A stretch of DNA of 62,880 bases, the filler included. It is 3 parts of 3 records of this genome, joined end to end, with 100 filler letters (N's around TTAATTAATTAA, not from the genome) between each part and the next. Parts side by side here need not be neighbours in the genome. Positions count along the whole stretch, not along the records: positions 20,678 to 40,229 come from SRR20825006_256; 2 more parts are not named here. One strand, 5' to 3'. Below the pieces are notes generated by a model. That model searched no databases. It was not told the origin of the DNA and was given only the letters and a program-made list of their open reading frames with translations. Position numbers and translations under genes: made by a program. Within the stretch, counting starts at the first letter, position 1, and every line of letters begins with the position of its first letter. Of the stretch, positions 20,578-38,078 are shown piece after piece.

Positions 20578-20677
20578 NNNNNNNNNNNNNNNNNNNNNNN
20601 NNNNNNNNNNNNNNNNNNNNNTTAATTAATTAANNNNNNNNNNNNNNNNNNNNNNNNNNNNNNNNNNNNNNNNNNNN
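20578..20677. other. Artificial contig-joining spacer
   Basis: N-run containing TTAATTAATTAA (stops in all six frames); base composition changes abruptly across it. Confidence 0.97.
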
Positions 20678-20756
20678 GTTCTCGACTGCGCTCGAACTGA
20701 CATTTTTTTGACCACGCTTAGCTAATTGGGTTGTCACACCGAGCGCAGTCGAGGTG
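20678..20756. repeat. Inverted pair of REP-like elements at the contig end
   Basis: GTTCTCGACTGCGCTCGAACTGACA (20678-20702) and TGTCACACCGAGCGCAGTCGAGGTG (20732-20756) share the inverted core CTCGACTGCGCTCG / CGAGCGCAGTCGAG. Confidence 0.7.
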
Positions 20757-20758
20757 CT

Positions 20759-23700
20759 TTAAGCACCTTCTGAATATAAATTATCATTTAAAGTTTGAAG
20801 TACTGCATCTACATTGCCCTCAAAAATTTTATTAATACGGGTATAGCCGCCTTCTTCTTTAAAAGGATCATTATTTAAATCTTCTTTGGTTAAAATGGCT
20901 TCAGCGATAAGCTGTGCCTTAAAGCGATCAAGCCAGCGTTGTTGAATTTTATTCCAGTTGTGCATCGCCTGTATTTTGGCAAAGGCATTTGCGATACGCT
21001 GCTCCTGCGGAATCAAATCTACATCAAGCGCCAGGGTGCGAATATAGGCAATGATATCTGCTGCGATATCCTGATTTTTGACCTGTTTCCAGGCAGTCTG
21101 AAGCGCGCGGGTATTAAAACCTTCTGCATCCAGCTGTAATTTGAGTTCCTTCAGACTCTTACGGTCCAGAGAAGTAGGACTGGTCACAATCGCTTGTAAT
21201 GCAGCAATTTTATTCTTGTTTTCTTTTATATATTTTTTAAAGCCTTCGATATAGTCTTCCGGTTTCTGTGCCTTGCCATAATCCCGGTCTGTACCCAAAA
21301 ACTCATCTTTATGTTCGGAGACGAGTTGTACTTTCGGTCTGTAGATTTTTCGGTCTAGATAATTCCATAAGTTGGAATAGGACTGAATGATTTTTTTGAC
21401 TTCCTGCTGCGAAGCATTTTTTATGGTCTCAATAATCTCCTGAGGTTCCAATCCACCGGAGCGATAGATGAACTCCTCCATATCTTCAGCTTCTATTTTC
21501 TTGCGCTTGCGCTGTAGTTTAGATAGTAATTGCTCTACTTGAGTTTGTACCCGTTCCTCGGTCTCAATATGATCAAGCTCCTCTACCAGTTGGGTAAAGG
21601 AAGTTGAAGGATTGCTCACCGGTTTCATCTGGGTATAATCATCAAGCGCTTCGTGCACCCGAACGGCATCATAAATATCAAAAGACTCTTTCCCAATCTC
21701 ATCACATTTACGGGTAGCACGTCCCAGCATTTGCTCAAACAGAATACGCGAACTTACCCGGCGTAGGAATACCAGATTACAAATGGCCGGTACATCTATT
21801 CCAGTAGTTAGCAAGTCTACAGTAACTGCGATGTTTGGAAACTTTTCATTTTTATACCTGCGGGTTAATTCTTCAGGATCTTTAATACTTCCTGTAATTT
21901 TTTCAATAGCTCCCTGTGGTACGTCAAAGCCAATATTGTGAAACTCCTCGTGTAATTGGTTTACAATTAAATCAGCGTGAGAATCCCTTACTGCAAAAAT
22001 TAACGTCTTCTCTTCACTATTAGGGTCCAGATACTGTACCAATTGTTTGATTACCGTACGGTTAAAATCGTCGGTGATGACCAGTTTATTAAACTGTTCA
22101 ATTTCTACCAACATATCATCTTCCAGTTCAGCCAGTTCTTCAATTTTGTTGGTTTCAGGATTGAATACTTTAGGACGTTCACCTTTTTTCCAGAGAATAC
22201 CCTCTTCACTGAGTTTGGTTTTAATACGATGCGGTGGATCGTGATCTGCAAGGTATCCATCGATAACCGCTTGGCGGTAGGAATAGGAATACACAGGTTT
22301 CCCAAAGATCTGAGTGGTATGCAGTGCCGGTGTAGCAGTCAACCCAATGATGTAGGCGTTAAAGTATTCGATTACCCGTTTATACTGGCTTACATAGTCG
22401 TTTTGATCTTTAAAGCTAAAGTCTTCTTCGTCCAGTTCTTTGTCCAGATTATAACCCCGGTGCGCCTCATCAATGATGATGCAGTCGTAGGTGTCGATAG
22501 GTAATTTATCGGTGTCATTATAAAATAGGCGTTTAACCAGGCTTTGCACAGTTGCAAAATGAATGCGGGTATCGGCATCGGGTATTGAGGTTTTCATATC
22601 CTCAATTTGATACACTTCAGAAAAGGTGTTTATACCTTCAACCTTGTTGTCTTTGTAATTGCCTAAAGCTTGTTTTGCAAGGAGTCGTCGGTCTGTCAAA
22701 AATAAAATGCGCTTAAACCGGTTGGCTTTTATCAAACGGTAAGTAAGGCCTATGACTGTTCTGGTTTTACCCGTCCCTGTGGCCATCACCAAAAGGGATT
22801 TTAGCTCCTCCCTGTTTTTAATGATTTTGGTTTCAACAGCCTTAATCGCATTGATCTGGTAATCCCTTAATCCAAGTCCGTTTTTATCCTGCAGATAGTC
22901 ATAGTCGCTTTGAACCAGACGTTTATTTTCTTCTTCGGTTTTCTTATCAAATAGGTCTTTAAGACCCTGTGGGGAAAACCATCCTCTTAGTGGATAAGGG
23001 TGATTGTGATTATTGCGTACATCTAAGAACCAAATTCCGCTTTTGGTTTTAATTTGTTCCAAATAGTCCCTACCATTTGTTGAAAACAAAAAGGGAGCTT
23101 TATAGTCAAACCAGTCACCTAATAGCTCAAACTGTTCTGTTGCCTCAATACACCCGGCATAGATTTTAGACTGCCGCAAGTCGGTTGAAATGTCACTGCT
23201 GTATTTTTTTGCTTCTACAATACCGTAAAGGGTAGTATCGATAAATAAGGCGTAATCTGCCCAACCACCTTCACAAGGCCATTCTGATATAGCCATAAAC
23301 CGGCCTTTCTCGGGTAGTGTTTTATGTGTTTTGTAATTGAGTTCTGTCGTGTCAGCCTCCCATCCAGCAGCTCTCAATTGCGGGTCGATAAGGGTCAGTC
23401 GCGTATCTTTCTCGCTTAAGTTTAATTTTTTAGCAACGCGCTCACTGCGTTTTTTTCGAGAGTCGGTTACGGCCTTAGAGCTGTTGAGTTGCTCTATTTT
23501 TTCTTTGTAATCGGCCACTTGCTGTGCCAGAAAGTCTACCTGCTCTGATAGCTCTTTTACCGAGAGCTTATTTTCTTTGGTAAGCTGATAGTTGGTTTCT
23601 GTGATGTAGTCATTCTCGTAGGTTTCGTAAAACCATTTAGAAAGCTGAAAGCACTTTTTCAGAATGAACAGGGCTTCTGGTTTTGAACCGGTCCCGTCGT

Positions 23701-23980
23701 GGCTCGCTTTGTTTCCAGAGGTGCGTATGGTATGTAAAATACCTTTGATGATGTCCGGAATAATATTGCGGTGAGCAAGCTGATTGATGCGGTCTACTTG
23801 TCTGCCGCTAAATTCATCCAGTTCTTCAAAGTCCCAGATTAAAACACTAGTCTTTTCAGCCAGTAAGCGCGCTTTAGCTATTGACGAACTGGGGTCAACA
23901 GTATAAAGTTTTTCGGCAAGTGCAGCAATCCCATAAAGTTCCGGATAAACCGGCTGGAGGAAATTAAAGCTTGAGGGCAT
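20759..23980 (-). CDS. hsdR: Type I restriction enzyme R subunit (EcoKI-like HsdR)
   Basis: Nuclease motif ADYALF...VEAKK, Walker A MATGTGKT, DEAHRGY, LTATP, LLTTGIDVP, QMLGRATR. Confidence 0.93.
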   Translation of the reverse strand: MPSSFNFLQPVYPELYGIAALAEKLYTVDPSSSIAKARLLAEKTSVLIWDFEELDEFSGRQVDRINQLAHRNIIPDIIKGILHTIRTSGNKASHDGTGSKPEALFILKKCFQLSKWFYETYENDYITETNYQLTKENKLSVKELSEQVDFLAQQVADYKEKIEQLNSSKAVTDSRKKRSERVAKKLNLSEKDTRLTLIDPQLRAAGWEADTTELNYKTHKTLPEKGRFMAISEWPCEGGWADYALFIDTTLYGIVEAKKYSSDISTDLRQSKIYAGCIEATEQFELLGDWFDYKAPFLFSTNGRDYLEQIKTKSGIWFLDVRNNHNHPYPLRGWFSPQGLKDLFDKKTEEENKRLVQSDYDYLQDKNGLGLRDYQINAIKAVETKIIKNREELKSLLVMATGTGKTRTVIGLTYRLIKANRFKRILFLTDRRLLAKQALGNYKDNKVEGINTFSEVYQIEDMKTSIPDADTRIHFATVQSLVKRLFYNDTDKLPIDTYDCIIIDEAHRGYNLDKELDEEDFSFKDQNDYVSQYKRVIEYFNAYIIGLTATPALHTTQIFGKPVYSYSYRQAVIDGYLADHDPPHRIKTKLSEEGILWKKGERPKVFNPETNKIEELAELEDDMLVEIEQFNKLVITDDFNRTVIKQLVQYLDPNSEEKTLIFAVRDSHADLIVNQLHEEFHNIGFDVPQGAIEKITGSIKDPEELTRRYKNEKFPNIAVTVDLLTTGIDVPAICNLVFLRRVSSRILFEQMLGRATRKCDEIGKESFDIYDAVRVHEALDDYTQMKPVSNPSTSFTQLVEELDHIETEERVQTQVEQLLSKLQRKRKKIEAEDMEEFIYRSGGLEPQEIIETIKNASQQEVKKIIQSYSNLWNYLDRKIYRPKVQLVSEHKDEFLGTDRDYGKAQKPEDYIEGFKKYIKENKNKIAALQAIVTSPTSLDRKSLKELKLQLDAEGFNTRALQTAWKQVKNQDIAADIIAYIRTLALDVDLIPQEQRIANAFAKIQAMHNWNKIQQRWLDRFKAQLIAEAILTKEDLNNDPFKEEGGYTRINKIFEGNVDAVLQTLNDNLYSEGA

Positions 23981-24201
23981 GAATATTTGGTTAGTTTTCT
24001 AAATGGAAGGGGGACTTAAAAATATATATTATTATCAATAAACTCAAACCTAAGTAAAAAAGAATTTAGAGCGTTACGGAATTCTGTAATTCTGTTTAAA
24101 GCATTTTCTTAAATTGTATAAGATATAATCAATTAGTCGGAACCGTTTCTAACCAAAAATGTTCTAAGAAATAGGTATTTATTGCAGGCAAGATCAAACT
24201 T

Positions 24202-25197
24202 ATGAAGATGAATGTAATTCAAGCCATAAAGGAGTTTAATACAGATGCTTTACAAGAGCTATTAGATGACAGCAAAAGCTATATGGAAGTGTCTAAAAAA
24301 TTGTTTTTAAAAACACTCAAAGTAAAGTTTGAGGAGGCTAGAGAAGGAGGCTGTAATCAATTTGATGAAGTTTATTTTGGAGTTTGTCAAAGCTGTAATA
24401 AAGGATGCGAAGCAATCACTTTTTGGGCTGAAACAGGTCACTACTTGGATCTCTTTATTGAATCGAGCGACGAAAAGACTGTTGATGATATATATACCTG
24501 CTCAAGTATTGAAAACTTTATAGAATTAGACAAAGAGTTTGATTTGAGTTTTTCATTTCACCGCGAAGAGCATGTTAATTTTAAGCCTACTAAAGCGTAT
24601 ACTTCTATTCGAGATACGTTAACTCAATTTGATCGAGAAATCAAATTACAACCCAATCCTTGGCCATTAGAGGAATGCTTAACATTTTTTGAAAGGTATA
24701 GTGTTTTACAAAGTTATATGAGTACTATTGGATTATTTGATGTATTTGAATACAAGCTCTACAGTCGGTTATTTAGACTGGTAGGAGATATAGAAAATTT
24801 GGAGAACATTGTCAAGGCTCAAAGAGACGCTGTTGATGAAATACTAGACTTAGAACGCCTGACAGCAGAGCGAGAGTGGCTCATTTGGTATTACGAAAAT
24901 AAGGAATTTCAATTTGCAGCAAATGCTTTTAAGTTTAAGGAAGGGATTAAGGAACTCAGATTTCCTCAGGTGAATATTGGTCAGTATTCTTTTACGATTG
25001 ATATGAAAGGCTTTGAATATGTTTTAAAATTCTTTTTTAAAATTGAAGAGATCTACCATTACTTTATGGAAAAGTACAAACCGCAAGCCAAACACTTTGA
25101 GCAACAAGGGGCGATTAAATATGAACTAGAAACATATCTCAAATTATACGATGCGCATCAAGATGTTGTAAATAGCTACATTAATAAGCAAGCTTAG
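24202..25197 (+). CDS. Hypothetical protein with a CxxCxxxC motif
   Basis: 331-aa ORF in AT-rich DNA containing GVCQSCNKGC; no recognised family. Confidence 0.7.
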   Translation: MKMNVIQAIKEFNTDALQELLDDSKSYMEVSKKLFLKTLKVKFEEAREGGCNQFDEVYFGVCQSCNKGCEAITFWAETGHYLDLFIESSDEKTVDDIYTCSSIENFIELDKEFDLSFSFHREEHVNFKPTKAYTSIRDTLTQFDREIKLQPNPWPLEECLTFFERYSVLQSYMSTIGLFDVFEYKLYSRLFRLVGDIENLENIVKAQRDAVDEILDLERLTAEREWLIWYYENKEFQFAANAFKFKEGIKELRFPQVNIGQYSFTIDMKGFEYVLKFFFKIEEIYHYFMEKYKPQAKHFEQQGAIKYELETYLKLYDAHQDVVNSYINKQA

Positions 25198-25490
25198 CAT
25201 ATTGTAAAGATCCCATCATCTAGGGAAGATTTCCTCAAATAAGATGTTAGCAAAATCCGCAAACTGTGCTTTGTAATTGATATAAGGCGGTGTTACTATA
25301 TAAGACTTCAAATTTAAAGTGTATAGCTATTTCAGGACTAACACCTAGAGATGTATAACCACATCAGGATTAAAGGACACTCAGATAAGGCTTTAATGCA
25401 GCTACTTGGTTCACCCGAGGATACTGCATAGATAAAGCATAGATAGAGTATGGATACAGTATGAAGAGCTTATGAAAGGAGTAGGCTGAA

Positions 25491-25742
25491 TTAAGATGTC
25501 TTTTTAAAGAGCGATTTCAGCGGAACTTTTAGCTCTTTTGCAATTAGTAATAGAGTTTCGAAAGTAGGATTTGTATTGCCTCGCTCTATTTCACCTATTG
25601 TTTTTTTCGCGTGTCCTGTTCTGAGACCGAGTTCTTCCTGAGAAATAGGTTTGTTGGTTTTAGGATTAATCACAAATTGACGTAAATCAGCAATTCTTGC
25701 TCCTAGTTCTTCTTTCTCTTTTTTGAATTTTATATTGGACAT
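25491..25742 (-). CDS. XRE/Cro-family helix-turn-helix regulator
   Basis: LGARIADLR...ISQEELGLRTG...IGEIERGNTNPTFETLLLIAKELKV; divergent from the sigma gene. Confidence 0.9.
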   Translation of the reverse strand: MSNIKFKKEKEELGARIADLRQFVINPKTNKPISQEELGLRTGHAKKTIGEIERGNTNPTFETLLLIAKELKVPLKSLFKKTS

Positions 25743-25775
25743 CAAGATAAAATTCTTAGTTTATCTTAATATTTT

Positions 25776-25795
25776 AGGATACATATATGTATCCT
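25776..25795. promoter_or_regulatory. Perfect 20-bp palindrome, candidate HTH operator
   Basis: AGGATACATA/TATGTATCCT, ~35 nt upstream of the HTH start and between the divergent genes. Confidence 0.65.
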
Positions 25796-25828
25796 TTTGT
25801 TATATTTATTATATTTACCTCATAATTA

Positions 25829-25836
25829 TATATTTG
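25829..25836 (+). promoter_or_regulatory. Bacteroidetes -7 promoter element (TAnnTTTG) facing the sigma-dCas12f operon
   Basis: TATATTTG matches the TAnnTTTG consensus. Confidence 0.55.
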
Positions 25837-25882
25837 CGAAACTTCTTTAAGTAACATATTAGAAGCATTCGCTTTGAATCTC

Positions 25883-25991
25883 GCTATCAAAAACTGGTAA
25901 TTTTTATGCAACGAGAGGATAAGCCGGGATGCTCACGACCCGGGCGTGGGCTCTCACTTATTGTTGCGTGGTATACCAGTGCCCTGATAGC
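25883..25991 (+). ncRNA. Long nested stem-loop in the leader of the sigma gene (structured leader or ncRNA)
   Basis: Nested pairings GCTATCA/TGATAGC, ACTGGTA/TACCAGT, GCAAC/GTTGC, ATAAG/CTTAT, GCTCACG/CGTGGGC; a U-rich run follows at 26011-26021. Confidence 0.55.
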
Positions 25992-26181
25992 ATAAGTTGA
26001 GACCTGCGCCTTTTCTTTTTTCTCAGCACTTCTCAACATTCAAGCCGTGTTTCTTCCTTAACGAAGGCGAGCAGCCACACCCCAATTTCAAAATTGGCAA
26101 CTTGCCGGGTACCCCTATGCCTACAAGCAAGCCAAGAACCCCCTAAACTAATGCTTATGTAAGAACTAAAACGGGTTAAGA

Positions 26182-26970
26182 ATGAAACGATTTTCAGCAG
26201 ACAAACACTATACAGGGTTCAAACACGGCTGCCCTAGGGCCTTCAAAGCCATTTATACCCAATACCATCGGCAGATCTATTGGATGGGACGGAGTTTGAT
26301 CAAAGATGTATTTGTGGTAGAAACCTTGGTACAAGACACTTTTCTCACCCTATGGGAAAAACGCGAAAGCATTGAGTCTCCACAACATCTGGTCAATTTT
26401 CTATATACCGTCATTTTCAATGAATGCAAATGGTATTATGCGCGGCCTAAAAATCAGTTTAATCGGGAGTGTTATGCTTTAGAAAAGATAGACAACTTCC
26501 AAAGCTTTATGCTGGGCTATGATCCCACAGCGGTAGACATACATTTAGAAGACCAGCAACAACAGGAAAAGGAGTATGAGCAGGTGGTTAAGGTATTGCC
26601 GCTTTTGGGTGCCCCACGCCAACGCCTTATCGAGCTTTGTTTGCAACACGGTTTTAAATACAAAACCATTTCCGAGCAGTTGGGCATCAGCATCAAAGAA
26701 ACCAGTAATACACTCCAGCAAACCATCGAAGAGATCAAAAACATTTTGCATCAAGGCTATGTACTCCAACCTCAGGAAACTGAGCCAATGCAAAACGGAG
26801 AAGGGCAGATGACTGAGCAGGAAGCTCGTGTACACGCACTTCGTTGTGAGCAGCAATACTCGTTTGCCCAGATCGCTAACGAACTCCAACTTTCCCAAAA
26901 GGAAGTACATCGCGCCTTTACCACGGCCTATAAGCTCTTACAGCAGCACGAACACTTACAATCCGCTTGA
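26182..26970 (+). CDS. rpoE: Atypical ECF (sigma-70 family, RpoE-like) sigma factor with an extra C-terminal HTH
   Basis: Region-2-like AFKAIYTQY...LVQDTFLTLWEKR, region-4-like RQRLIELCLQHGFKYKTISEQLGIS, and a second HTH YSFAQIANELQLSQKEV. Confidence 0.8.
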   Translation: MKRFSADKHYTGFKHGCPRAFKAIYTQYHRQIYWMGRSLIKDVFVVETLVQDTFLTLWEKRESIESPQHLVNFLYTVIFNECKWYYARPKNQFNRECYALEKIDNFQSFMLGYDPTAVDIHLEDQQQQEKEYEQVVKVLPLLGAPRQRLIELCLQHGFKYKTISEQLGISIKETSNTLQQTIEEIKNILHQGYVLQPQETEPMQNGEGQMTEQEARVHALRCEQQYSFAQIANELQLSQKEVHRAFTTAYKLLQQHEHLQSA

Positions 26971-28070
26971 TGATGAACAACAAGACCTTAAGCCTTACCC
27001 GCAAGATCCAACTCAAGGTAGATTTGCCTACCTATGAAGAGCGTAAAGAAGCGATTGGTAAACTCTACCAATGGCAAAACCGCTGCTTTAAAGCGGCCAA
27101 CATCATCGTGACCCAATTGTACTGCCAGGAAATGATCAAGGAGTTCTTTTACCTGACCGAAGACATCCAATACAAACTGGCCGATCAAAAGAAAGACGAA
27201 AACGGTATCTTAAACCGTTCGCGCATCAACACCACTTATCGGGTAATCGCAGACCGCTTTAAAGGAGAGATCCCGATGGAAATCTTATCCAACCTCAATC
27301 GGAACTTAGAAAGTAGCTTCAATAAAAACAAACCCAAATATTGGAAGGGCGAGCGCTCCCTCAAAAACTTCAGGCGGGACATTGGTTTTCCGTTTCCTGC
27401 GCGCTGTATGTGGGGCTTCAAGCACGACCCCGAGCGTAATGCCTTCTGTTTTCGCTTATTTCAGATTCCCTTTTGCACCTATCTGGGCAGGGACTTTTCC
27501 GATAAGCGGGACCTCTTGCATCGGGCGGTAAAGGGGGAGGTGCGCCTACGCACTTCAGAGATCAAATTGACCGATACAAAGATCTTTTGGTTGGCGGTAT
27601 TTGATATTGAGCAAGAGCAGCACGCTTTAAAACCGGAGGTGATTGCCGAAGCTTCCTTGTCGCTGGAGCATCCCATCAGCGTCAAAGTGGGCAGCAACAG
27701 GTTAAACATCGGGACCAAAGAAGAATTCCTCTACCGTCGCTTGGCCATCCAAGCCGCCCGGAAGCGTGCCCTGGCCGGAACCGTAAATTCTCGAGGTGGT
27801 CACGGCCGCACCCGCAAGCTTAAAGCGGTGGAAAAATATAAGGACAAAGAGACCAAGTACGTCAATCAGCGCTTACACGTTTACAGCAGAAGACTCATAG
27901 ACTTTTGTGTCAAACACCAAGCAGGCACACTGATCTTGATTAATCAAGAAGACAAGATCGAAGCCGCTAAAGAAAATCAATTTGTCCTCAGAAACTGGAA
28001 CTATTACGAACTCACTAAAAAAATAGAATACAAAGCCAAAAAAGCAGGAATTGAATTGGTCATAGATTAA
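26970..28070 (+). CDS. Nuclease-dead Cas12f/TnpB-like RNA-guided DNA-binding protein (dCas12f)
   Basis: Cas12f-like elements LTRKIQL, GHGRTRKLK, HVYSRRLIDF and LRNWNYYELTKKIEYKAKKAGI. The RuvC-I position reads ASLSL (no Asp) and RuvC-II reads LILIN (no Glu); the protein ends before the zinc finger and RuvC-III. Start overlaps the sigma stop (TGATG). Confidence 0.8.
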   Translation: MMNNKTLSLTRKIQLKVDLPTYEERKEAIGKLYQWQNRCFKAANIIVTQLYCQEMIKEFFYLTEDIQYKLADQKKDENGILNRSRINTTYRVIADRFKGEIPMEILSNLNRNLESSFNKNKPKYWKGERSLKNFRRDIGFPFPARCMWGFKHDPERNAFCFRLFQIPFCTYLGRDFSDKRDLLHRAVKGEVRLRTSEIKLTDTKIFWLAVFDIEQEQHALKPEVIAEASLSLEHPISVKVGSNRLNIGTKEEFLYRRLAIQAARKRALAGTVNSRGGHGRTRKLKAVEKYKDKETKYVNQRLHVYSRRLIDFCVKHQAGTLILINQEDKIEAAKENQFVLRNWNYYELTKKIEYKAKKAGIELVID

Positions 28071-28094
28071 ACCTATTGATTGATTTTATGATCA

Positions 28095-28182
28095 GAGGGT
28101 GCTTGTACACCCGTAATGTGAGGTCACGGGCACTCACCAAATGCAAAAGCATATACAACGGCGTGTTCATCTACACTTAGAA
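28095..28182 (+). ncRNA. Putative guide RNA 1 (scaffold 28095-28165 plus variable 3' guide TTCATCTACACTTAG...)
   Basis: Three-hairpin repeat unit starting 25 nt after the dCas12f stop and repeated 160 nt later. The guide 3' end is approximate. Confidence 0.7.
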
Positions 28183-28254
28183 AACAAGAGCTTTTTAGTG
28201 AAGCACATAAAATAAAAATGGTTGAGTTTTTAATCTTGAATTTGGAATATAATC

Positions 28255-28344
28255 GAGGGTACTTGTATACCCGTAGGGTGAGGCTGAAGCGCTCACTAAA
28301 TATCATACCGATATATACAATGGCGTGAGTTAGTTATCTTTAAA
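28255..28344 (+). ncRNA. Putative guide RNA 2 (scaffold 28255-28327 plus variable 3' guide AGTTAGTTATCTTTA...)
   Basis: Second copy of the scaffold with compensatory changes; similarity to copy 1 ends sharply after GGCGTG. Confidence 0.7.
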
Positions 28345-28499
28345 CCGTTTTAAAATGATTGAACACAAAAGGTCCTAGTTTTATCCAGCCTTAATACTAT
28401 TAAGAATTATCCCTTGATAAACTACACGTTTGGTTAATTGTAAAGGTTGGTTTAGGTTCCGAATGAAGTGTAATCAACAGCTTATTTTTTAAAGAAAAC

Positions 28500-29093
28500 A
28501 TGAAAAAAATCATACTTCCATTAATACTTATCCTAGTTATATATCACTCTTGTTTAGATCAAAATCAAAATCAGTCTAGTGCAATTGATACAGGGTTATT
28601 TAAAGAAGTTCAAAGTGATAGTATAAGCTTTAAAATCCCTGATACACTAAACGTTACACAAAATAAAAGGATAAACGCTTTGGTGCTCTTAAACCCTCAA
28701 AGTTCTAAATCATATTACGCGCTTATTTTAAATCCCGCAAAAGAAATAAGAACTACTGAAGAATACATTAAAGCAGTATTTTCAAACTTAAAGAGGGATT
28801 ATGGTAATTACGAGTATAGTTTAACAAAGGTACACTTGGACACGGGAGCTCATTTTTATTATATAAATGTCCTTATCGAAGATGATAAGGAAACGTACCG
28901 CATACACAATTTGATCTATTTAAAAGATGATCATTTTTATGATTTCAGTTTGCGGGGTTTAAATAAAGACTTTCAAAGTAAAGACTACGAGCGCTTATTT
29001 AAAAAAATAGTCTTTAGTACTAGAGTAAACAAAGAAGAGTTATTTCGTGCAGAAAATACCAAAGTAGTAAGAGAGGAGAATGTAGTACTGTAG
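28500..29093 (+). CDS. Hypothetical lipoprotein
   Basis: MKKIILPLILILVIYHSC signal peptide II-like N-terminus; 197 aa. Confidence 0.65.
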   Translation: MKKIILPLILILVIYHSCLDQNQNQSSAIDTGLFKEVQSDSISFKIPDTLNVTQNKRINALVLLNPQSSKSYYALILNPAKEIRTTEEYIKAVFSNLKRDYGNYEYSLTKVHLDTGAHFYYINVLIEDDKETYRIHNLIYLKDDHFYDFSLRGLNKDFQSKDYERLFKKIVFSTRVNKEELFRAENTKVVREENVVL

Positions 29094-29210
29094 AATCCTT
29101 TAGTATCTGGAAGTTTATAGATATAATGTAAAAGGATTGATAAATACCTAATATGCAACTTCTCATAAGGAAAGAGGTCTATTGATTTGTATTAACCTAC
29201 CAATTCTATT

Positions 29211-30971
29211 ATGCCTTATATTCGATCCTTCCTTGTGCTGCTATGTGTAGTAATCAGTATTCAATCTGCTTTTTCCCAAGAAAAATACAATCTGAATTTT
29301 AATGATTTTGATCCAAACGAAGAGCGCTTGCCTGAAGGCTGGTTCGTATGGGGTGATTTTAAAACCGTTGTTGGGGATCGAGAAAATCCAAACAATGCAG
29401 TAGGTAAAATAGTATCCGACAAAAAAGGAAAATTTGGATGCATTGCCTATCAAATTCCAGCAAATTATATCGGAGATACCATTGTACTATCAGGTAAAAT
29501 CAAGTATGAAAAGGTCAAAAATTATGTAGGGCTGCTCATACGTATTGATGGTAAAAAATCAGTAGCCTTTAGAAGTATGCAATACTTGCAAATGCGGGGT
29601 TCTAGGGATTGGAAAGAATATTCGATAAAACTTCCTTATCCTACGAACGCCGCAAACATCTATGTGGGCGGAATTTTAGGCAAAGGAGGTACGGCTTGGT
29701 TTGATGATTTTAAGGTGACTATAGACGGAAAAGACATCCAGACCCTTGAAGAAACACCAGTTCAGACTTTAGCGCAAGTAGATAGTAAACAGCTACAACA
29801 GGCGATCAAGCAAGCTTCAAGTCCGCTGGATTGGTCTACAGATGCTCAATTGAGTAAAGATCTGGATGCATTAATTGAGAAGGTGGGAGATAAGCGCATT
29901 GTAGCCTTAGGAGAAAGTACGCATGGCACTTCCGAATTTTACAAGTTAAGAGCTTTACTTACGAAGAGATTAGTAGAAGAAAAGGGCTTTAATCAGGTGG
30001 TTTTAGAAAACCCCTATGACAATATCGAACGTTTAAATATGGAATTGAATACCAAACTGCTTGACAGTCTAATCAAGAGGGACCTGTTCTCCATTTATCA
30101 GACCGAAGAGGTGAAATCCTTTTTAGAATGGTACAAAAACAAGCGTACTAAAGTTGATGTGGAATTCAAGGGATGTGACGATTCCTATTGGTCTTTCCTT
30201 GAAGTCTTGACCGATCGATTAAAAGATATTCCGGATAACCAGTTGGAGCTACAAGTACAACAGCTTAAAACCCACGTATCGAAATCAACTAAAGCTAACC
30301 GCAAGAAAGAAATTCGGTTCAACAATTTGATCTATGAGGATATCGTCCAAATCGAAAAGTATCTAAAAGACGCCAATATGCTTGATGAGGATCTTGAAGA
30401 GCTCCTGTTCAACGGGAAGAATTCCTATATCAATTATGTGCACATAAAAAATGGCAAACCCATTCAAAGTCGGGACAAAATCATGGCAGATCGAATAGCG
30501 TATTTGGCTAGAGATAATAATAATAAGATCATTGTCTGGGCGCATAATGCACACATTGCTAACGAAGTCATAGCAGACAACGAAATAGGTGTTATGGGGA
30601 GAGATCTAAAAGCAGTCTTTGGGGAAGATTACTACACAATAGGGCAAATGACTTCAGAAGGGACCTATTCCTATATGGAGGAGAAGTTGATCAATGCGGA
30701 TAAGGATTATTCCGAAATACTTAAAACAGCAGTATTGCAGCAGCAAGACGAACTCTTATGGGAAGATCTATTCGCTGGGTGTTCTGAAGCGTTTATACTA
30801 GATCAAAAAGAACTAAAGAAGTCTTTTGATAAACGTATTATGGGACTTACCAAGTTGGTTGGTTATGCCAAAGAAACTGAAAAAGACCAGTATTTCTTAC
30901 CGCTTATGGAATATTACGATTCCCTGATTTACATTAACAAAACCCAAGCGACTTCACTTCTTTTTGATTAA
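29211..30971 (+). CDS. Secreted erythromycin-esterase-family protein with an N-terminal beta-sandwich-like domain
   Basis: Signal peptide; RIVALGESTHGTSEF, RDKIMAD and IIVWAHNAHI motifs. Confidence 0.85.
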   Translation: MPYIRSFLVLLCVVISIQSAFSQEKYNLNFNDFDPNEERLPEGWFVWGDFKTVVGDRENPNNAVGKIVSDKKGKFGCIAYQIPANYIGDTIVLSGKIKYEKVKNYVGLLIRIDGKKSVAFRSMQYLQMRGSRDWKEYSIKLPYPTNAANIYVGGILGKGGTAWFDDFKVTIDGKDIQTLEETPVQTLAQVDSKQLQQAIKQASSPLDWSTDAQLSKDLDALIEKVGDKRIVALGESTHGTSEFYKLRALLTKRLVEEKGFNQVVLENPYDNIERLNMELNTKLLDSLIKRDLFSIYQTEEVKSFLEWYKNKRTKVDVEFKGCDDSYWSFLEVLTDRLKDIPDNQLELQVQQLKTHVSKSTKANRKKEIRFNNLIYEDIVQIEKYLKDANMLDEDLEELLFNGKNSYINYVHIKNGKPIQSRDKIMADRIAYLARDNNNKIIVWAHNAHIANEVIADNEIGVMGRDLKAVFGEDYYTIGQMTSEGTYSYMEEKLINADKDYSEILKTAVLQQQDELLWEDLFAGCSEAFILDQKELKKSFDKRIMGLTKLVGYAKETEKDQYFLPLMEYYDSLIYINKTQATSLLFD

Positions 30972-31053
30972 TAACTCAGAATACCTGTTTGATAGATAGG
31001 TTTCAGTTTTACAATTCAAATAGTTTAAGCAAGAAGGAGGAAGCCGTAATATA

Positions 31054-31875
31054 CTACCATTGAAAACTGGCGAATACTGGTAAATGATCTGACGCATAGT
31101 GTTCATCAATTACTAGATGGTTGTTCAGCTTGAAAAAAGACTTTGGTTTAAAGGCTATAAAATCAATAGCCTTTGACGGATTTTCTACGGGGATTGTGGG
31201 CGGACAAGAGGAGCAGGTTCTTGTAAATACGCTATCGAGTGAGGTAATTACTGGACTGTTTGCTACGGTATTAAAATCTCCAGCCACCAGCACAGGTTGG
31301 TTTAAATTGGTAGTGATATTTAATAGTTCTTCTATTTGTAAGATCCGGTTGGTATCTTCTTTCTGAGAATCTAAATGGGTACTTGCAAACCAAATGGTCT
31401 GCGCATCCGGTAACTGGATCAATGACAGCGCCAAAACTCGAGGTTCTCCGTGAGTTTTAGGTTTTGAAGGAAGTTTATAGACCTTAGATGCTATAATAGG
31501 GAATCGAGAAAGAATAGCAACACCGTATGCTCCGTTTTGAAAATCTATTGACTTACCAAAGAATACCTGCATTCCCAGGGCATCTCCAATCTTTTGGGCT
31601 TGATTTCCAGAACCCGAGCGCTCCGTATCTGAATCGATTTCTTGTAAAGCAACGAGATCTGCATCACTATCTTTGATGACTTGAATGATGGCTGAGAGAT
31701 CTATACTGTCCTTATGCATCGGCGGATTCGCGTGATGAATGTTATAGCTTAAGACCTTCAGTTGATTGGAGGAGTTTCCAAAAGTAGCCGTGGAGCGCTC
31801 TTGAGAAAGCATTGGGTAAAAGGATAAAAAAAGGATTATCTTGAAGATAATCCCTTTAGTCATTTTTGTATGCAT
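31054..31875 (-). CDS. Endonuclease/exonuclease/phosphatase (EEP) family protein
   Basis: VLSYNIHH, VALQEID, STHLD, AGDFN, IDFI, ASDHLPV; start uncertain (31893/31875/31863). Confidence 0.88.
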   Translation of the reverse strand: MHTKMTKGIIFKIILFLSFYPMLSQERSTATFGNSSNQLKVLSYNIHHANPPMHKDSIDLSAIIQVIKDSDADLVALQEIDSDTERSGSGNQAQKIGDALGMQVFFGKSIDFQNGAYGVAILSRFPIIASKVYKLPSKPKTHGEPRVLALSLIQLPDAQTIWFASTHLDSQKEDTNRILQIEELLNITTNLNQPVLVAGDFNTVANSPVITSLDSVFTRTCSSCPPTIPVENPSKAIDFIAFKPKSFFKLNNHLVIDEHYASDHLPVFASFQW

Positions 31876-31905
31876 AGTGTTGTATGGGTTCATTAGGTAA
31901 AGCTA

Positions 31906-32763
31906 TTAGTTCTCTGTTAGTTCAACTTTTGCAATCACAGGAAAGTGATCAGAGATATAGCGATCTCCGCGTTGTCCATCTAAAATTTGTAAAGTTAAGG
32001 GTTGCACCCCTCCCGAGTAGAATATGTTATCTATTCTACTATCTGAGGTTCTTCCTGTTGCATCCCATCCATTAGCACTGTATTCGGGACCATAGACCTG
32101 ATCTGCATCTAAAGTAAGGTACGGATCTTTCAATCCGGAGCTTAAGAGGGTAGCGATAGCCTCACTTTTCGGCGAACTATTAAAATCACCCGTGAGTAGC
32201 ACGGGGGAGGTTCCGGCAATTTCCTTAATTTTTTGAGTAAGTAAAGCTGCACTTGCTATTCGAGCTTGTTTTCCTCGGTGATCAAAATGCGTATTGAAGT
32301 GATAGAAGCTTACTCCAGAGTGTTTATCTTTAAATAAAGCCCAAGTTACAATACGGGGTAAAGCCGCGTCCCAACCCTTGGAAGCGACAACATCTGGTGT
32401 TTCTGAAAGCCAAAAGGTATTGCTATCTAAAACTTCAAAGCGCTCTTTTTTATAGAAAATCGCAGAGTACTCTCCTTGAGTTGCACCTTCGCGACCTATA
32501 CCTACGTGCGCGTAATAAGGTAGGAGTACTTCCATATCCAAAAGTTGGGTATGGGTGACTTCTTGGGTACCAATAAGGTCTGCTTGATAAAACCGAATAC
32601 TGTGGGTGAGCCAGTCTTTACGCTGCTCCCATATATTGATCCCGTCTTCAGGACTATTATAGCGTATATTGAACGAACTTATTACAAGTTCCCTCTTGCT
32701 TTTCTGAGCATTTACACTGCTGAATAGGAGCAGTGCAAATGCAATAGATACTAGGGTTCTCAT
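31906..32763 (-). CDS. Secreted EEP-family protein
   Basis: SFNIRY, GTQE, FWLSETP, NTHFDH, GDFN, SDHFPV; ATG overlaps the susD stop (TAATG). Confidence 0.9.
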   Translation of the reverse strand: MRTLVSIAFALLLFSSVNAQKSKRELVISSFNIRYNSPEDGINIWEQRKDWLTHSIRFYQADLIGTQEVTHTQLLDMEVLLPYYAHVGIGREGATQGEYSAIFYKKERFEVLDSNTFWLSETPDVVASKGWDAALPRIVTWALFKDKHSGVSFYHFNTHFDHRGKQARIASAALLTQKIKEIAGTSPVLLTGDFNSSPKSEAIATLLSSGLKDPYLTLDADQVYGPEYSANGWDATGRTSDSRIDNIFYSGGVQPLTLQILDGQRGDRYISDHFPVIAKVELTEN

Positions 32764-34502
32764 TAGTTCCAACCAGGGTTTTGTTCCAGATTAGGATTGA
32801 GTTGTAATTCTATACGCGGTATAGGGTAGAGATAATCCTTGTTTTCATCAAAACTTCTGTTGTTAAAATCCGGATGAGGATCAATCAATCCATTCATGTC
32901 CAAGGTGAAATCTGAATCTAAGCGATAATATTGAATTCCGCTTATTGGATTCGCTGGTCGTTCTCCTTCATAAAGCACGACATTTATAGCACCATCTCCG
33001 GTAAGGTCATATTCACCTGGTCCGGGGAAGTATAAACCTCGAATAGGTTGGGTAAGGGTTTGGCCGGCTTTCCAGCGCACCACATCATCCCATCTGAAGT
33101 TTTCCATATACAATTCAATGCGTCGCTCTCGTCTTATTTCTAAAATAACACCAGTATTTGCTCCGGTTACATCGGGATACTGAGCTGCCATAAACGAATC
33201 TGGTGCTGCATTTGCTGTATCTAGATTCAAATCAGGCATACCAACGCGTTGTCTTAGTAAATTAATGGAATTATTGAGATCTTCTTGAGATAGCGTTCCT
33301 AATTCAGCTTTAGCTTCTGCATAATTCAAGAGCACTTCTCCAAAACGATAGATAGGAAGATCCGTAATAGACTGCCCATTGGTATCATAAACCGGCTCGG
33401 TCACATACTTTATGATTTGATAACCGGTAACTGTAGCTCCAAGATTAGGAGCCAACTCAATACTTTGTCCTTTTCGGGTATATCCTGGAGTGCGTATCGT
33501 CTGTGCCAAACGAGGGTCTCGATTTTGAACTTCTTCAGTAAAGGACAGTTGATTATAGCCTGCTCTATCTGTAAAACGCGTTCCATCAGCATTCAGATAG
33601 CTATTTACAAGATCTTTCGGCATACCTGGACGACCATACGAACTTGTCGTGGTGTAGTAATTTACATTATGACCAATATTAAGATCTTCCGAATAGGCGC
33701 GGGCTAAGATCACTTCAGTTTCATTAGCATCATGTGAATTAAACAACTCTAGATAATCTTGTTCCGGATTTCCTGTGCTGTAAATCTGATAAGGAGAATC
33801 TTCAATCAATGCAGTTGATGCTGCTACAGAGGCTTCTAGGTATTTTTCATAACCGTCAATCCCTCTATATTTCTCGTAAGTTCCCTCATAAAGTCCGATC
33901 CTTGATTTTAAAGCCAAAGCCGTATACTTAGTCACTTCATATGTATTTTGCTCTTCATTGAGGTTTTCAATGGCCCAGTCTAGATCTTCAAGCATTTTAT
34001 CAACAACATACTGTCTTGAGTCTCTAGGTTTGGTAAGGGCTTCAGTATCGTCTGGAGCTATGGGAGCGTCATACCAGGGTAAAGCACCAAAGCGTTGGAA
34101 CTTATCGAAGTAAAACCGCGCTCTAAAAAAGCGAGCTACCCCTCCATAATGGGCTTTAGCCGCTTCATCATCAGATTTTTCGTATTCCTGAAGAAAGAAA
34201 TTGATGTCGCGCAAATATTCCCAATTCCAACCGCCTCCGGTCGTAGGTACTAGCCTTGCGCCACGCATTTCTTCACTCAATTCAGTTTGTATAATATTGT
34301 CTGTACTCGCTTCTCCGTTGTAGATGGAAGTACTGGGCCACATCCGGTAAAACCCGTTGGTGTACAGTTGAAGATCACTAGCGGTATTGAAAAAGGTTTC
34401 AGCAGTAATTTCAGATAGCGGTTGCTTGTCTAAAAAATCATCACTGCACGAACTGATGCTGGTTGCTACAAGCAAACCGGCAAGTATATGTTTAACTTTC
34501 AT
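32763..34502 (-). CDS. susD: SusD/RagB family nutrient-binding lipoprotein
   Basis: Lipobox SSC-SDDFLD, RFGEVLLNYAEA, IRRERRIEL...RWDDVVRW, YLYPIP...NPNLEQNPGW. Confidence 0.93.
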   Translation of the reverse strand: MKVKHILAGLLVATSISSCSDDFLDKQPLSEITAETFFNTASDLQLYTNGFYRMWPSTSIYNGEASTDNIIQTELSEEMRGARLVPTTGGGWNWEYLRDINFFLQEYEKSDDEAAKAHYGGVARFFRARFYFDKFQRFGALPWYDAPIAPDDTEALTKPRDSRQYVVDKMLEDLDWAIENLNEEQNTYEVTKYTALALKSRIGLYEGTYEKYRGIDGYEKYLEASVAASTALIEDSPYQIYSTGNPEQDYLELFNSHDANETEVILARAYSEDLNIGHNVNYYTTTSSYGRPGMPKDLVNSYLNADGTRFTDRAGYNQLSFTEEVQNRDPRLAQTIRTPGYTRKGQSIELAPNLGATVTGYQIIKYVTEPVYDTNGQSITDLPIYRFGEVLLNYAEAKAELGTLSQEDLNNSINLLRQRVGMPDLNLDTANAAPDSFMAAQYPDVTGANTGVILEIRRERRIELYMENFRWDDVVRWKAGQTLTQPIRGLYFPGPGEYDLTGDGAINVVLYEGERPANPISGIQYYRLDSDFTLDMNGLIDPHPDFNNRSFDENKDYLYPIPRIELQLNPNLEQNPGWN

Positions 34503-34513
34503 AAGGATGTTTT

Positions 34514-37500
34514 TTAAAATTTAAGAGATAAGCCTAAAGAATAGGTTTCTGAAAATGGATTGGTTTGAGCTGTTCCTCGATTTGCAGAGGTAGAGGGACT
34601 GTTTAAATTCACAGAAGCACTTGCGGCTTCCGGATCGATATAATCGGTCAGTTTAGAAAAGGTCAGAAGGTTTTCGCCACTGAAGTAGATACGCAGTTTC
34701 GTCGCAGCGGTTTTTGATATCAGTCCGTCAGGAAGTGTATAGCCTAAGGTCAGATTTTTTAGTCTGAGATAGGCCACGCTTTGTAAGTAGCGATCATTTA
34801 CTTTTTCTAAAGAACCACCAAGCGCGATATAACCGTAATTTCGGGGATAGTAAGCATCAGTATTTTCTGGGCTCCACATATCGTCTACCATATCTTTTCT
34901 GATATAAGAATTATAGGGTCTGTTGTAAGGTCCCCAAAACATTCGAGAGTCTGAATTAGGATACCAATCTTGTTTCCCTACACCCTGAAAGAACACAGAA
35001 AAATCAAAACCTTTCCAATTTGCATTAGCCAAAAAGCTGTATAAATATTGCGGAGCAGAATTCCCGATAATTTCACGGTCTCCAGGATTGTCCACGGTAT
35101 TTTCACCTTCTCCTATATAGCCATCACCATCAAGGTCTCTGTATTTTACATCGCCAGGTTGTAGCCCTCCTCCTGAAGTGATTCTATTGGAAACAAAACT
35201 CTGGTCTGCGTGATTGGCAATCTCTTCTTCGGTTTGAAAAAGTCCATCTATGCGATATCCCCAAAGTTCCCCGATGGTCATCCCTTCATAAAAGTCTACC
35301 AGACTACGGTTAGGATTATCAAAGTTGGTTATTTTGGTTTTTGAGTTGGAAAGGTTCGCAGTTACAGACCAGCTGAACGTATCTTCAGCTAATTCAAAAT
35401 AGTCATTGTAGCTCACAGAAAGTTCGAATCCTTTGGTTCTTAAATCTGCAGCATTTTCTAAAGGAGATGCAGTACCTAATACACTGGGTAGTGTAGCTCC
35501 AGGTGAAAGCATTCCTTCGGTATCTCGTTGAAACCAATCAAAAGAAGCAGATAAGTGGTTGTTGAAAACCCCTACATCAACCCCGAAGTCAAGCGTACTT
35601 ACTTTTTCCCAGGTGATCTCGCTAGGGTTTAAGGCTGGAGATTCGATATAATTTAAGCGACTTCCATTAAGAACATAGTCATACAATCCATTTGGCAAAG
35701 TCGGGAAATAAGCATAATTGCTTATGTTTTGATTTCCTAGAGAACCATAGGAAGCACGGAACTTCAGAAGATCAAAGGTTTCTCCTGTGGCATTTTCAAT
35801 AAATTGCTCTTTGTTTGCTAACCAAGCCCCTGAAAAGGAAGGGAAGAATCCCCATCGGTAGGCAGATGGAAAACGTGATGTTGCATCATATCTACCATTA
35901 AACTCAGCTACATATTTATCTTTATAATCATAGGATAGTCTATAAAATAAACCTTGAAGCGCCCACTCTGATGCACTACCAGAGGTGGTAGGATTCGATG
36001 TTGCCAGTCCTAAGGAGTTTAAGTCATTTGAAATTAAATTCTGCTTACTAGCGTTGATGCTCTTGGTAATGAACGTTTCTTGGTTGAAACCAATAGTAGC
36101 TTTTATATTATGATCTCCAAAGTATCCTTTGTACTCGCCATACACGTTGAGCGCATCGTATTTGCTTTCAGTGCGATATTCATTAAGATAATCATTTCCC
36201 ATTAGATCCAATTGTTCAGGATAAATCGAGTAGGGGATACGGGTAGAGCGTTGAAACCTGCTATACTCATTCCGTCTAATAGCATAGTTTGCATTTAAGG
36301 TTACCCCTTTGATGGGTTTAAGTTCTACAGAAGCGATGTTACTAAACTCATTATTATTGGTTTGCTGTTTAGTGGTTCCTTGTAATAGTCCGGCATACAC
36401 ACCATCACCAATCGTATAGTTATTCAGTTCCGTACGCCATAAGGCACCTCCATCAGGATTTACAGGAACATAGGAAGGCAGTGCGTGCACCCATATTAAA
36501 CTTCCCCAAAGGTTGCTGTAGTTTCCATATTGGCTACCACTGTGCTCCAGATCTTCTGAGCTGTTGTACTGCATATTGTTGGAGAACGATAACCAATCTG
36601 TGGCTTTGATATCAATTTTGCCACGTAAATTGTACTTATCGTAATAGTCGTCCTGAACTTTCAGGATCCCTTGAGATTGAAAATTACGATAGGAGAAATA
36701 GGCTTTGATTTTTTCAGAACCTCCGGAAACAGAAGCATTATAAATTTGTGTTGGATAGGTCTTTCTAAAAAAAGTATTCCACCAGTCCGTATAGCCGTAG
36801 TGCACATATTGATCACGCCCATTGCGCTGGTCAATAATTACACGGGCTAGAGAAGGGTCTTGGGAAACTTCATAAAGCGCCTGCATATCTTCTTCCGTAT
36901 AACCGGTATAAGACGCTCCGCTGTTATTTCTAAAAGCTTCATCCACGATGGAAACTGCTTTAAAAGGATCAGTAAGAAAATCGGTATTCATCGTTGGGGA
37001 GTTAATAGCTGTGGTCACTCCCAGATTCACTTGAACACTACCTTTATCCGCATTTTTAGTGGTTACTAAGACCACACCAAAGGATCCTCGCGCTCCATAG
37101 ATCGCGGCAGCTCCGGCATCTTTTAGAACACTGATTGATTCAACATCACTTGGATTGAGGTTGCTCAAGCTGCCTTCTATACCATCAATAAGAATCAGTG
37201 GTGTTCCGCCATTAATAGAGGTAAAACCTCTGATGTTAATACGAGGTTCTGCACCTATTTTACCGGTACTTTGAGTAACATTAAGTCCGGGACTTAGACC
37301 CTGAAGACTTGAGGTAACGTCGGCTACGGGTCTCTGTTCTAAATTTTCAGTGTTGACCGTGCTAACTGCGGTAGAAAGCTTTTCTCGGCTGGTTTCACCA
37401 TAACCTACGACAACCACTTCATCAAGTGCATTATTATCTGCTTGTAATTGAACTTGGATCGGGGCCAAAGATTCAATGGTGATTTCCTGAGTGGTAAATC

Positions 37501-37795
37501 CTATATAGGAAATTTTAATTACGGCAGGTAATTGAGAAACATTAAGTTCAAAGTTACCATCAAAATCAGAGGAGGCCCCATTGGTGGTATTTACTTCCAT
37601 AATAGAAGCTCCCGGTAAAGGCATTCCTGTATTGTCAAGAACCGTTCCTGTTAATTTTTGCTGATCGATGTTTGTGTTTAATGGAACGTTGGCAGCATTA
37701 ATGTAGGTTGAGCAGTAGAGTAATAAAGTAATCGTGACCAAAAATTTGGGCACAAGGGCAGGCAATTCAAAAAATTGAAGTAATTTGGTTTTCAT
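34514..37795 (-). CDS. susC: SusC/RagA TonB-dependent outer-membrane transporter
   Basis: LDEVVVVGYG, VLKDAGAAAIYGARGSFGVVLVTTK, WGFFPSFS, YLRLKNLTLGY and terminal Phe; ATG at 37795. Confidence 0.95.
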   Translation of the reverse strand: MKTKLLQFFELPALVPKFLVTITLLLYCSTYINAANVPLNTNIDQQKLTGTVLDNTGMPLPGASIMEVNTTNGASSDFDGNFELNVSQLPAVIKISYIGFTTQEITIESLAPIQVQLQADNNALDEVVVVGYGETSREKLSTAVSTVNTENLEQRPVADVTSSLQGLSPGLNVTQSTGKIGAEPRINIRGFTSINGGTPLILIDGIEGSLSNLNPSDVESISVLKDAGAAAIYGARGSFGVVLVTTKNADKGSVQVNLGVTTAINSPTMNTDFLTDPFKAVSIVDEAFRNNSGASYTGYTEEDMQALYEVSQDPSLARVIIDQRNGRDQYVHYGYTDWWNTFFRKTYPTQIYNASVSGGSEKIKAYFSYRNFQSQGILKVQDDYYDKYNLRGKIDIKATDWLSFSNNMQYNSSEDLEHSGSQYGNYSNLWGSLIWVHALPSYVPVNPDGGALWRTELNNYTIGDGVYAGLLQGTTKQQTNNNEFSNIASVELKPIKGVTLNANYAIRRNEYSRFQRSTRIPYSIYPEQLDLMGNDYLNEYRTESKYDALNVYGEYKGYFGDHNIKATIGFNQETFITKSINASKQNLISNDLNSLGLATSNPTTSGSASEWALQGLFYRLSYDYKDKYVAEFNGRYDATSRFPSAYRWGFFPSFSGAWLANKEQFIENATGETFDLLKFRASYGSLGNQNISNYAYFPTLPNGLYDYVLNGSRLNYIESPALNPSEITWEKVSTLDFGVDVGVFNNHLSASFDWFQRDTEGMLSPGATLPSVLGTASPLENAADLRTKGFELSVSYNDYFELAEDTFSWSVTANLSNSKTKITNFDNPNRSLVDFYEGMTIGELWGYRIDGLFQTEEEIANHADQSFVSNRITSGGGLQPGDVKYRDLDGDGYIGEGENTVDNPGDREIIGNSAPQYLYSFLANANWKGFDFSVFFQGVGKQDWYPNSDSRMFWGPYNRPYNSYIRKDMVDDMWSPENTDAYYPRNYGYIALGGSLEKVNDRYLQSVAYLRLKNLTLGYTLPDGLISKTAATKLRIYFSGENLLTFSKLTDYIDPEAASASVNLNSPSTSANRGTAQTNPFSETYSLGLSLKF

Positions 37796-37839
37796 CAGAA
37801 TAGAACTATGGATTTGTACTGTAGTTTTAATTTTAATGA

Positions 37840-37865
37840 CCCGTTTCTGTTGCACCAGAAACGGG
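37840..37865 (-). promoter_or_regulatory. 10-bp hairpin in the susC 5' leader
   Basis: Minus strand CCCGTTTCTG-GTGCAA-CAGAAACGGG, 45 nt upstream of the ATG. Confidence 0.6.
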
Positions 37866-38053: not shown

Positions 38054-38078
38054 TAGAAGTTGAGTTAATCAACTTCTA
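38054..38078. repeat. 10-bp inverted repeat upstream of susC
   Basis: TAGAAGTTGA-GTTAA-TCAACTTCTA. Confidence 0.55.

Follow-up and report, generated by a model that had tools for sequence, protein, structure and literature searches.

Probable tandem guide RNA genes of a dCas12f-sigmaE transcription system in a Leeuwenhoekiella-like contig

Two tandem units directly downstream of a dcas12f gene are almost certainly single guide RNA genes of a dCas12f-sigmaE RNA-guided transcription system. They lie in the window, i.e. the whole stretch of 62,880 nucleotides that was analysed. An earlier note, made from the letters alone, had read them as a non-CRISPR array of fused scaffold and guide RNAs with two different guides. 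This is the same design as that of the published dCas12f-sigmaE systems, and the locus has all of their genetic hallmarks. Since the published system uses RNAs composed of a scaffold and a guide (Hoffmann et al., Nature 2026, PMC13472631), the earlier interpretation was right, and the thing itself is not new. The locus is a further example of an already published system, and tandem guides in the same genus are also in print.

The assignment rests on how the locus is built, on both proteins being orthologous to known partners, on a covarying scaffold family and on the guide boundary. We infer that the RNAs would be processed and bound, that they would activate transcription and that they would have targets in the source organism. 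The present work adds, at the computational level, candidate guide 1 targets with a non-G flank at a two-component/H-NOX regulon, an operator-like motif and rearranged arrays.

Architecture of the locus and its proteins

The locus is arranged in the order hth (minus strand), ncRNA-like element, rpoE, dcas12f, guide RNA 1 and guide RNA 2, all but hth on one strand. Its features are as follows.

25491-25745, minus strand: hth, 84 aa, Cro/C1-type helix-turn-helix protein (Pfam HTH_3, E 6e-11), divergent from rpoE
25776-25795, no strand assigned: palindrome AGGATACATA/TATGTATCCT, perfect 10+10, 30 nt before the hth start codon
25890-26020, plus strand: hth-associated ncRNA-like element between hth and rpoE, about 130 nt
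26182-26970, plus strand: rpoE, ECF sigma factor of 262 aa; an additional region-4-like domain at the C-terminus
26967-28070, plus strand: dcas12f, C-terminally truncated Cas12f homologue of 367 aa; 4-nt overlap of its start with the end of rpoE
28095-28165, plus strand: guide RNA 1 scaffold, 71 nt, three hairpins and tail AUAUACAACGGCGUG; 84.8 bits with covariance model R1 (see below)
28166-28179, plus strand: predicted 14-nt guide of guide RNA 1, TTCATCTACACTTA; conservation stops at GCGTG, and the published length is 14-16 nt
28255-28327, plus strand: guide RNA 2 scaffold, 73 nt; 81.7 bits with model R1
28328-28341, plus strand: predicted 14-nt guide of guide RNA 2, AGTTAGTTATCTTT

In Bacteroidota, rpoE-dcas12f operons have been described that are accompanied by an hth gene and by an ncRNA associated with hth (PMC13472631). 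The 20-nt palindrome before hth is a candidate operator for the HTH protein.

Both proteins are orthologous to structurally characterised partners of the Flagellimonas taeanensis system. RpoE carries the Pfam domains Sigma70_r2 (residues 24-87), Sigma70_r4_2 (134-180) and Sigma70_r4 (209-249), and it aligns over residues 14-260, C-terminal extension included, with chain 9n9q_C ('RpoE') at an E-value of 2.9e-68. For dCas12f, Pfam returned only a sub-threshold Cas12f1-like TNB match; the comparison with the PDB gave 9n9c_A ('Nuclease-deactivated Cas12f') and three more entries, with an E-value of 3.1e-164 and residues 4-366 aligned on 2-364/365. An alignment with active Cas12f nucleases places Ser230 at the position of the RuvC-I aspartate. 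The protein ends right after the KAGIEL motif, about 90 residues short of active Cas12f. Judged from its sequence, the effector thus appears to be a nuclease-dead Cas12f homologue, in which the RuvC domain is inactivated and truncated.

The two units and their scaffold family

The claim of two units, 71 and 73 nt long and 160 nt apart from start to start, agrees with the coordinates 28095-28165 and 28255-28327. Both units begin with GAGGGT, and the claimed base pairs of all three hairpins were re-read in the sequence together with their compensatory changes. Hairpin 1 is formed by GGGTG/CACCC in unit 1 versus GGGTA/TACCC in unit 2. Hairpin 2 has GTGAG/CTCAC in both units, and G-C and U-G or C-G pairs lengthen its stem beyond a bulged base. 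Hairpin 3 reads ATGC/GCAT in unit 1 versus ATATC/GATAT in unit 2. The differences between the units thus leave all three helices paired. The common end ATATACAA(C/T)GGCGTG, followed by complete divergence into the unrelated sequences TTCATCTACACTTAG (unit 1) and AGTTAGTTATCTTTA (unit 2), was likewise found as described.

Protein homologues are abundant in Flavobacteriaceae, 925 of 3655 candidates having E <= 1e-3. When genome contigs were scanned, 345 of 414 pattern-matched stretches proved to encode a relative, and the best 80 loci were retained. A strict regular expression yielded 16 units from the window and 11 loci. When these were aligned with their flanks, conservation at the DNA level extended exactly from GAGGGT at the start to GCGTG at the end. 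Because conservation stops at GCGTG, the 3' tails are taken as the variable guide parts. Guide 1 and guide 2 of the window are mutually unrelated; since they are wholly different, the array would address two different sites.

The 16 units, with the three hairpins as structure, served to build covariance model R1, which was used rather than the authors' own model. It is the kind of model that the earlier note had proposed as a check, and it detected 111 units (E <= 0.01) in 80 of 81 sources (750,602 bases; best 80 of the 345 loci), including an F. taeanensis locus (L049). All 111 units lie on the dcas12f strand, most of them starting 10-20 nt past the dcas12f stop, and 109 of their sequences are distinct. 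In 105 of the 111, the scaffold ends in G. Among the 80 sources with units, 62 have one and 18 have two to six. Apart from two gaps that exceed 1 kb, neighbouring units mostly lie 132-272 nt apart, and the 160 nt of the window is typical. A search of 25200-28600 against Rfam 15 gave no match up to E = 1.

The claim that structure is kept while sequence changes is borne out by the family. Over 17 base pairs and 111 units, 94.5% of the cells hold standard pairs, compared with 26-59% when the 3' partners were slid by 1-3 columns. Two-sided changes occur in 10 of the 17 pairs, against a mean of 5.6 in shuffled alignments and with 10 or more reached in none of 500 shuffles; as the alignment was fitted to the model, both counts lean towards structure. 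Single-sequence folding energies compared with shuffled sequences gave z = -1.45 for unit 1 and -0.32 for unit 2, neither of which is significant. In view of this weak single-sequence folding, the structural case rests on covariation.

It is extremely improbable that the units represent a CRISPR mini-array that has degenerated, or an omega-RNA belonging to an active TnpB transposon, even though the protein belongs to the TnpB/Cas12f superfamily and descent of such guide RNAs from CRISPR repeat-spacer units has been proposed (PMC13472631). We rejected a CRISPR array on account of the two 71-73-nt structured scaffolds, which differ at many positions with compensatory changes and are not short identical repeats. 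An IS200/IS605-type TnpB omega-RNA was rejected because the RNAs start past the stop codon, that of unit 1 at a distance of 25 nt from position 28070, and do not overlap the 3' end of the gene, and because the protein is truncated and apparently inactivated, with Ser at the RuvC-I Asp position and the C-terminal part of RuvC missing. Furthermore, the gene is operonic with a sigma factor, and neither cas1/cas2 nor tnpA is present among the ORFs examined on the contig. Omega-RNA-like arrays at such loci were first noted by Altae-Tran et al. (PNAS 2023), as credited in PMC13472631.

One public metatranscriptome contains contigs 90-95% alike to the ncRNA region, to parts of rpoE and dcas12f and to 27985-28205, which includes unit 1; these are assembled contigs in which RNA ends, strand and level are not visible, and some may derive from DNA in the library.

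The hth-associated ncRNA-like element

Between hth and rpoE lies an ncRNA-like element that matches the published hth-associated ncRNA. It contains GGGCGTG followed by the guide-like or target-like segment GGCTCTCACTTATT (25949-25962), and its 3' end consists of GCGCC and a T-run. In 42 of 80 related loci, a counterpart occupies the corresponding place (blastn, 74-93% identity; one of the matches spans only 36 nt), and an alignment of 25 copies reveals helices with visible compensatory changes.

According to PMC13472631, the hth-associated ncRNA overlaps target sites, and the seed of conserved guides resembles this ncRNA. The combination of GGGCGTG with GGCTCTCACTTATT, together with the GGCT start of 48 of the 111 guides of the family, agrees with that resemblance. 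The guides of the window match their own hth-rpoE region at only 9 of 14 and 10 of 14 positions. Across loci, a match of at least 12 of 14 positions between guides and their own hth-rpoE region was found for 8 of 106 guides.

[quoted passage not shown] Several of these contigs diverge at about 25948-25955, at or just past GCGTG, which suggests that the sample contains several hth/ncRNA copies whose target-like segments differ.

Genomic setting and rearranged arrays

The window consists of contigs joined by N runs around TTAATTAATTAA (about 20,590-20,677 and 40,230-40,330). The contig with the locus (about 20,675-40,229) has a G+C content of about 40% and is Leeuwenhoekiella-like. The locus is 93% identical to that of Leeuwenhoekiella blandensis MED217, and the downstream part 95-97%. 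The flanking contigs have 50-59% G+C, and one of them matches a different genome of 7.1 Mb (G001) at 99%. As a contig of about 40% G+C stands between contigs of 50-59%, one of them 99% G001-like, the assembly is mixed. G001 was rejected as kin of the locus contig, since it matches only another contig of the window; the locus is absent from G001, and guide matches there do not exceed the control.

One flank of the locus is occupied by a gene for a type I restriction R subunit (20759-23980, minus strand), the other by a susC-susD operon with two endonuclease/exonuclease/phosphatase-family genes (31054-37855, minus strand). Relative to MED217, a 2.7-kb insert with lipoprotein-like and erythromycin-esterase-family genes follows the array. 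A further scaffold-like unit lies about 10 kb from the array on the same contig.

38173-38244, plus strand: decayed third scaffold-like unit; 15.9 bits and E 0.0044 over the 19.5-kb contig with model R1, filters off

This decayed unit is intergenic, upstream of susC in the susCD operon and on the strand opposite to susC. Its hairpin 3 is identical to that of unit 1, and the sequence of its tail, GAACTTTAAAG, is similar to the guide at the end of the L. marinoflava array (L007).

In MED217, the array comprises five units (L004, 5566-7851) and is split by inserted genes for an AraC-type regulator and a small membrane protein; one of the unit copies has the degraded guide AGTTTTTTTAATTG. The same genome has a second hth-ncRNA-rpoE-dcas12f locus at 3.58 Mb (L113, 2015-5100), where the scaffold is interrupted before the GCGTG tail.

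Later units of Leeuwenhoekiella arrays (window 28215-28254; L004 and L006-L009) have two TTGAA-like boxes in front of them, with a distance of about 17 nt between the boxes and of about 20 nt from the second box to the scaffold. These boxes could be a promoter or a processing signal. A comparison with the Bacteroidota -7/-33 motifs gave no clear match.

Candidate targets of guide 1

The published targets belong to four categories overall and include sites that precede susCD operons, two-component systems or rpoE-dcas12f loci (PMC13472631). The target filter used there calls for a perfect 6-nt seed, and the target-adjacent motif of F. taeanensis is 5'-G. When the window was searched with both guides, either allowing up to three mismatches or by seed, nothing was recovered beyond the guides themselves and matches at chance level, and the 19.5-kb contig with the locus gave no guide match. 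As no guide match was found elsewhere in the window, we took L. blandensis MED217 as a proxy. This closest genome encodes a dCas12f that is 98% identical, and it contains guide 1 twice and a variant of guide 2 with two mismatches.

With at most one mismatch, the guide 1 14-mer occurs at 12 places in MED217, two of which are the guide genes; the reversed control gave 5. Nine of the other ten comprise five in long open frames of the opposite strand, one ambiguous place and three intergenic sites (1538391, 1545111 and 1550981), which lie on one strand within 13 kb. A fourth site, with 12 of 14 positions matched, is found 21 bp past the site at 1538391. The four sites match the guide at 13, 12, 13 and 14 of 14 positions and precede same-strand start codons by 139, 118, 83 and 93 nt. 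If transcription started at +46, leaders of 37-93 nt would result.

The first set of downstream genes encodes a response regulator, an H-NOX protein, a PAS histidine kinase, a FIST protein, a second kinase and a LytTR response regulator. The second consists of a single gene, whose 812-aa DUF4114 product carries a sorting domain for type IX secretion, and the third of genes for a STAS protein, an unknown protein and a glycosyltransferase. The most likely candidate addressees of guide 1 would be the promoters of this H-NOX/two-component operon, of the secreted-protein gene and of the STAS/glycosyltransferase genes. The supplementary tables of PMC13472631 list predicted targets in 106 genomes, and the MED217 targets may already be among them.

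All four sites are preceded by CCA, i.e. they have A at position -1 as opposed to the published G, and in three of them guide position 4 or 5, which belongs to the 6-nt seed, is mismatched. The extended motif CCATTCNNCTACACTTA is present in 6 of 23 genus genomes (MED217 and five others), while the control is found in none of the 23. The guide-1 RNA itself (GCGTG plus guide, at most one mismatch) occurs in MED217 only, 1 of the 23. In three of the five other genomes with the motif, it is located about 120 nt before orthologous response regulator and H-NOX genes.

Direct repeats with a period of about 21 bp are the usual binding sites of LytTR-type regulators. A CCATTCGTCTACACTTA-type direct repeat with a 21-bp period precedes the orthologous operon in four genomes (G002, G009, G013 and G018). 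We presume that it resembles a LytTR-type operator, and one LytTR regulator is encoded in the operon. The repeat is positioned at 2388-2427 in L108 and around 1501 in L121, L134 and L135, and it coincides with guide 1. Since the motif appears as a 21-bp repeat in genomes that do not have a guide-1 RNA, it may be a protein operator that is independent of the guide. Guide 1 may overlay this operator, or the match may be unused.

Consequently, an alternative has to be weighed in which the units are genuine dCas12f guide RNAs, the motif at the H-NOX operon is a response-regulator operator of the LytTR type, and the real targets lie elsewhere, e.g. at susCD or hth-ncRNA sites. This alternative is on the unlikely side, though it deserves serious attention. 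It would account for the wider distribution of the motif than of guide 1, for the 21-bp repeats before the orthologous operon and for the A, not G, before each site. The run contigs in which the 5' part of the ncRNA is shared and divergence sets in exactly past GCGTG also fit, as they suggest more ncRNA/target copies. On the other hand, one match at 14 of 14 and three at 12-13 of 14 positions fall within 13 kb, in intergenic DNA, in the correct orientation and 83-139 nt from start codons, and two-component systems are, as mentioned above, a published target class. Moreover, His110 of F. taeanensis dCas12f, which stacks on the -1 base pair, aligns to Arg112 of the protein in the window, and the target-adjacent motif of this orthologue may be a different one. 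The promoters named above thus stay our preferred candidates for guide 1.

The DNA of every guide is a perfect match to the guide itself, mostly with G at -1 (105 of 111 units). This G together with the perfect self-match implies that tandem arrays may activate themselves. The predicted +46 start after the unit 1 scaffold would fall 44 nt upstream of unit 2, and that after unit 2 would lie 127 nt before the plus-strand gene that comes next. A more far-reaching proposal, which we regard as doubtful, is that guide 1 copies the H-NOX/LytTR operator, that dCas12f-sigmaE fires the regulon through a non-G flank without the response regulator, and that the arrays self-activate.

Search for guide 2 targets and integrity of the array

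In MED217 and 22 other genus genomes, near-matches to guide 2 were no commoner than those to the reversed control. A recurring match at 13 of 14 positions was rejected, as it lies in a conserved promoter-like region with T at -1 and a seed mismatch; an exact match in three genomes was rejected as part of an unrelated conserved region.

One might therefore regard one or both units as unused, decaying remnants of an array in a region that is rearranging and eroding, given that guide 2 had no target in these searches, that a decayed unit lies 10 kb away and that the MED217 array is split by the AraC-type gene and includes a copy with a degraded guide. We consider such decay distinctly unlikely for the two units of the window. 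Their scores of 84.8 and 81.7 bits equal those of the best family members, whereas the relic scores 15.9, and the differences between them spare all three helices. In addition, two genomes have exactly the same guide 1 although the DNA of their loci is only 93% identical overall.

Proposed mode of action and significance

By homology with F. taeanensis, the following sequence of events can be proposed. Each RNA would consist of a scaffold of about 72 nt followed by a 3' guide of about 14 nt. A dimer of the nuclease-dead Cas12f would bind the scaffold, and the 3' guide would form an R-loop at matching DNA beside a short target-adjacent motif. Recruitment of the partner ECF sigma factor, which has the additional C-terminal domain, would then bring in RNA polymerase. 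Transcription would start about 46 bp downstream of the motif, and promoter boxes would not be needed. For the published system, recruitment of sigmaE and RNA polymerase has been reported, with a start 46 bp downstream of the target-adjacent motif and no need for promoter motifs (PMC13472631); the guide length is given as 14-16 nt (PMC13472631, 10.1101/2025.06.10.658880).

The locus is a natural two-guide example of this newly described mode of transcription start, in which an RNA guide replaces the promoter. If the guide 1 sites are real, the system would be wired into a nitric-oxide/two-component signalling regulon and not into a nutrient transporter. It would also follow that the target-adjacent requirement varies between orthologues, and that a guide is able to overlay an existing protein operator. 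These would be refinements of a known mechanism, not a new mechanism.

Comparison with known systems

The closest characterised relative is the dCas12f-sigmaE system of Flagellimonas taeanensis, for which the structures 9n9c, 9n9m, 9n9o and 9n9q are available (10.1101/2025.06.10.658880). Both loci have hth, the ncRNA, rpoE with the C-terminal domain, a truncated dcas12f and a guide RNA directly downstream; both proteins align over their full length with the solved chains, and the scaffold type and the 14-nt 3' guide are the same. However, F. taeanensis has one guide RNA per locus, a susCD target and a 5'-G motif, whereas the present locus has two unrelated guides, and the candidate targets, located in MED217, belong to a two-component/H-NOX regulon and have A at -1. 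A hallmark of the published dCas12f-sigmaE systems is discrete RNAs of 85-105 nt that are bound by dCas12f.

Leeuwenhoekiella palythoae represents the same genus-level lineage and likewise has two tandem guide RNAs downstream of dcas12f, which co-purify with dCas12f (PMC13472631). In the wording of that paper, its tandem RNAs have 'similar scaffold and guide sequences', while the guides of the window share no similarity.

TldR proteins (Wiegand et al., 10.1101/2023.11.30.569447) are also domesticated, nuclease-dead members of the TnpB/Cas12 group that use a scaffold with a 3' guide to regulate host genes. According to that preprint, they repress transcription. They are not coupled to a sigma factor, whereas dCas12f-sigmaE activates through sigmaE. 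With type V-F CRISPR-Cas12f the system shares the protein fold and the RNA-guided R-loop, active Cas12f structures being matched with E-values of 5e-41 and weaker. Type V-F Cas12f, however, is characterised by a CRISPR array, a separate tracrRNA, an intact RuvC domain, a zinc-finger C-terminus and DNA cleavage, features that set it apart from the locus described here.
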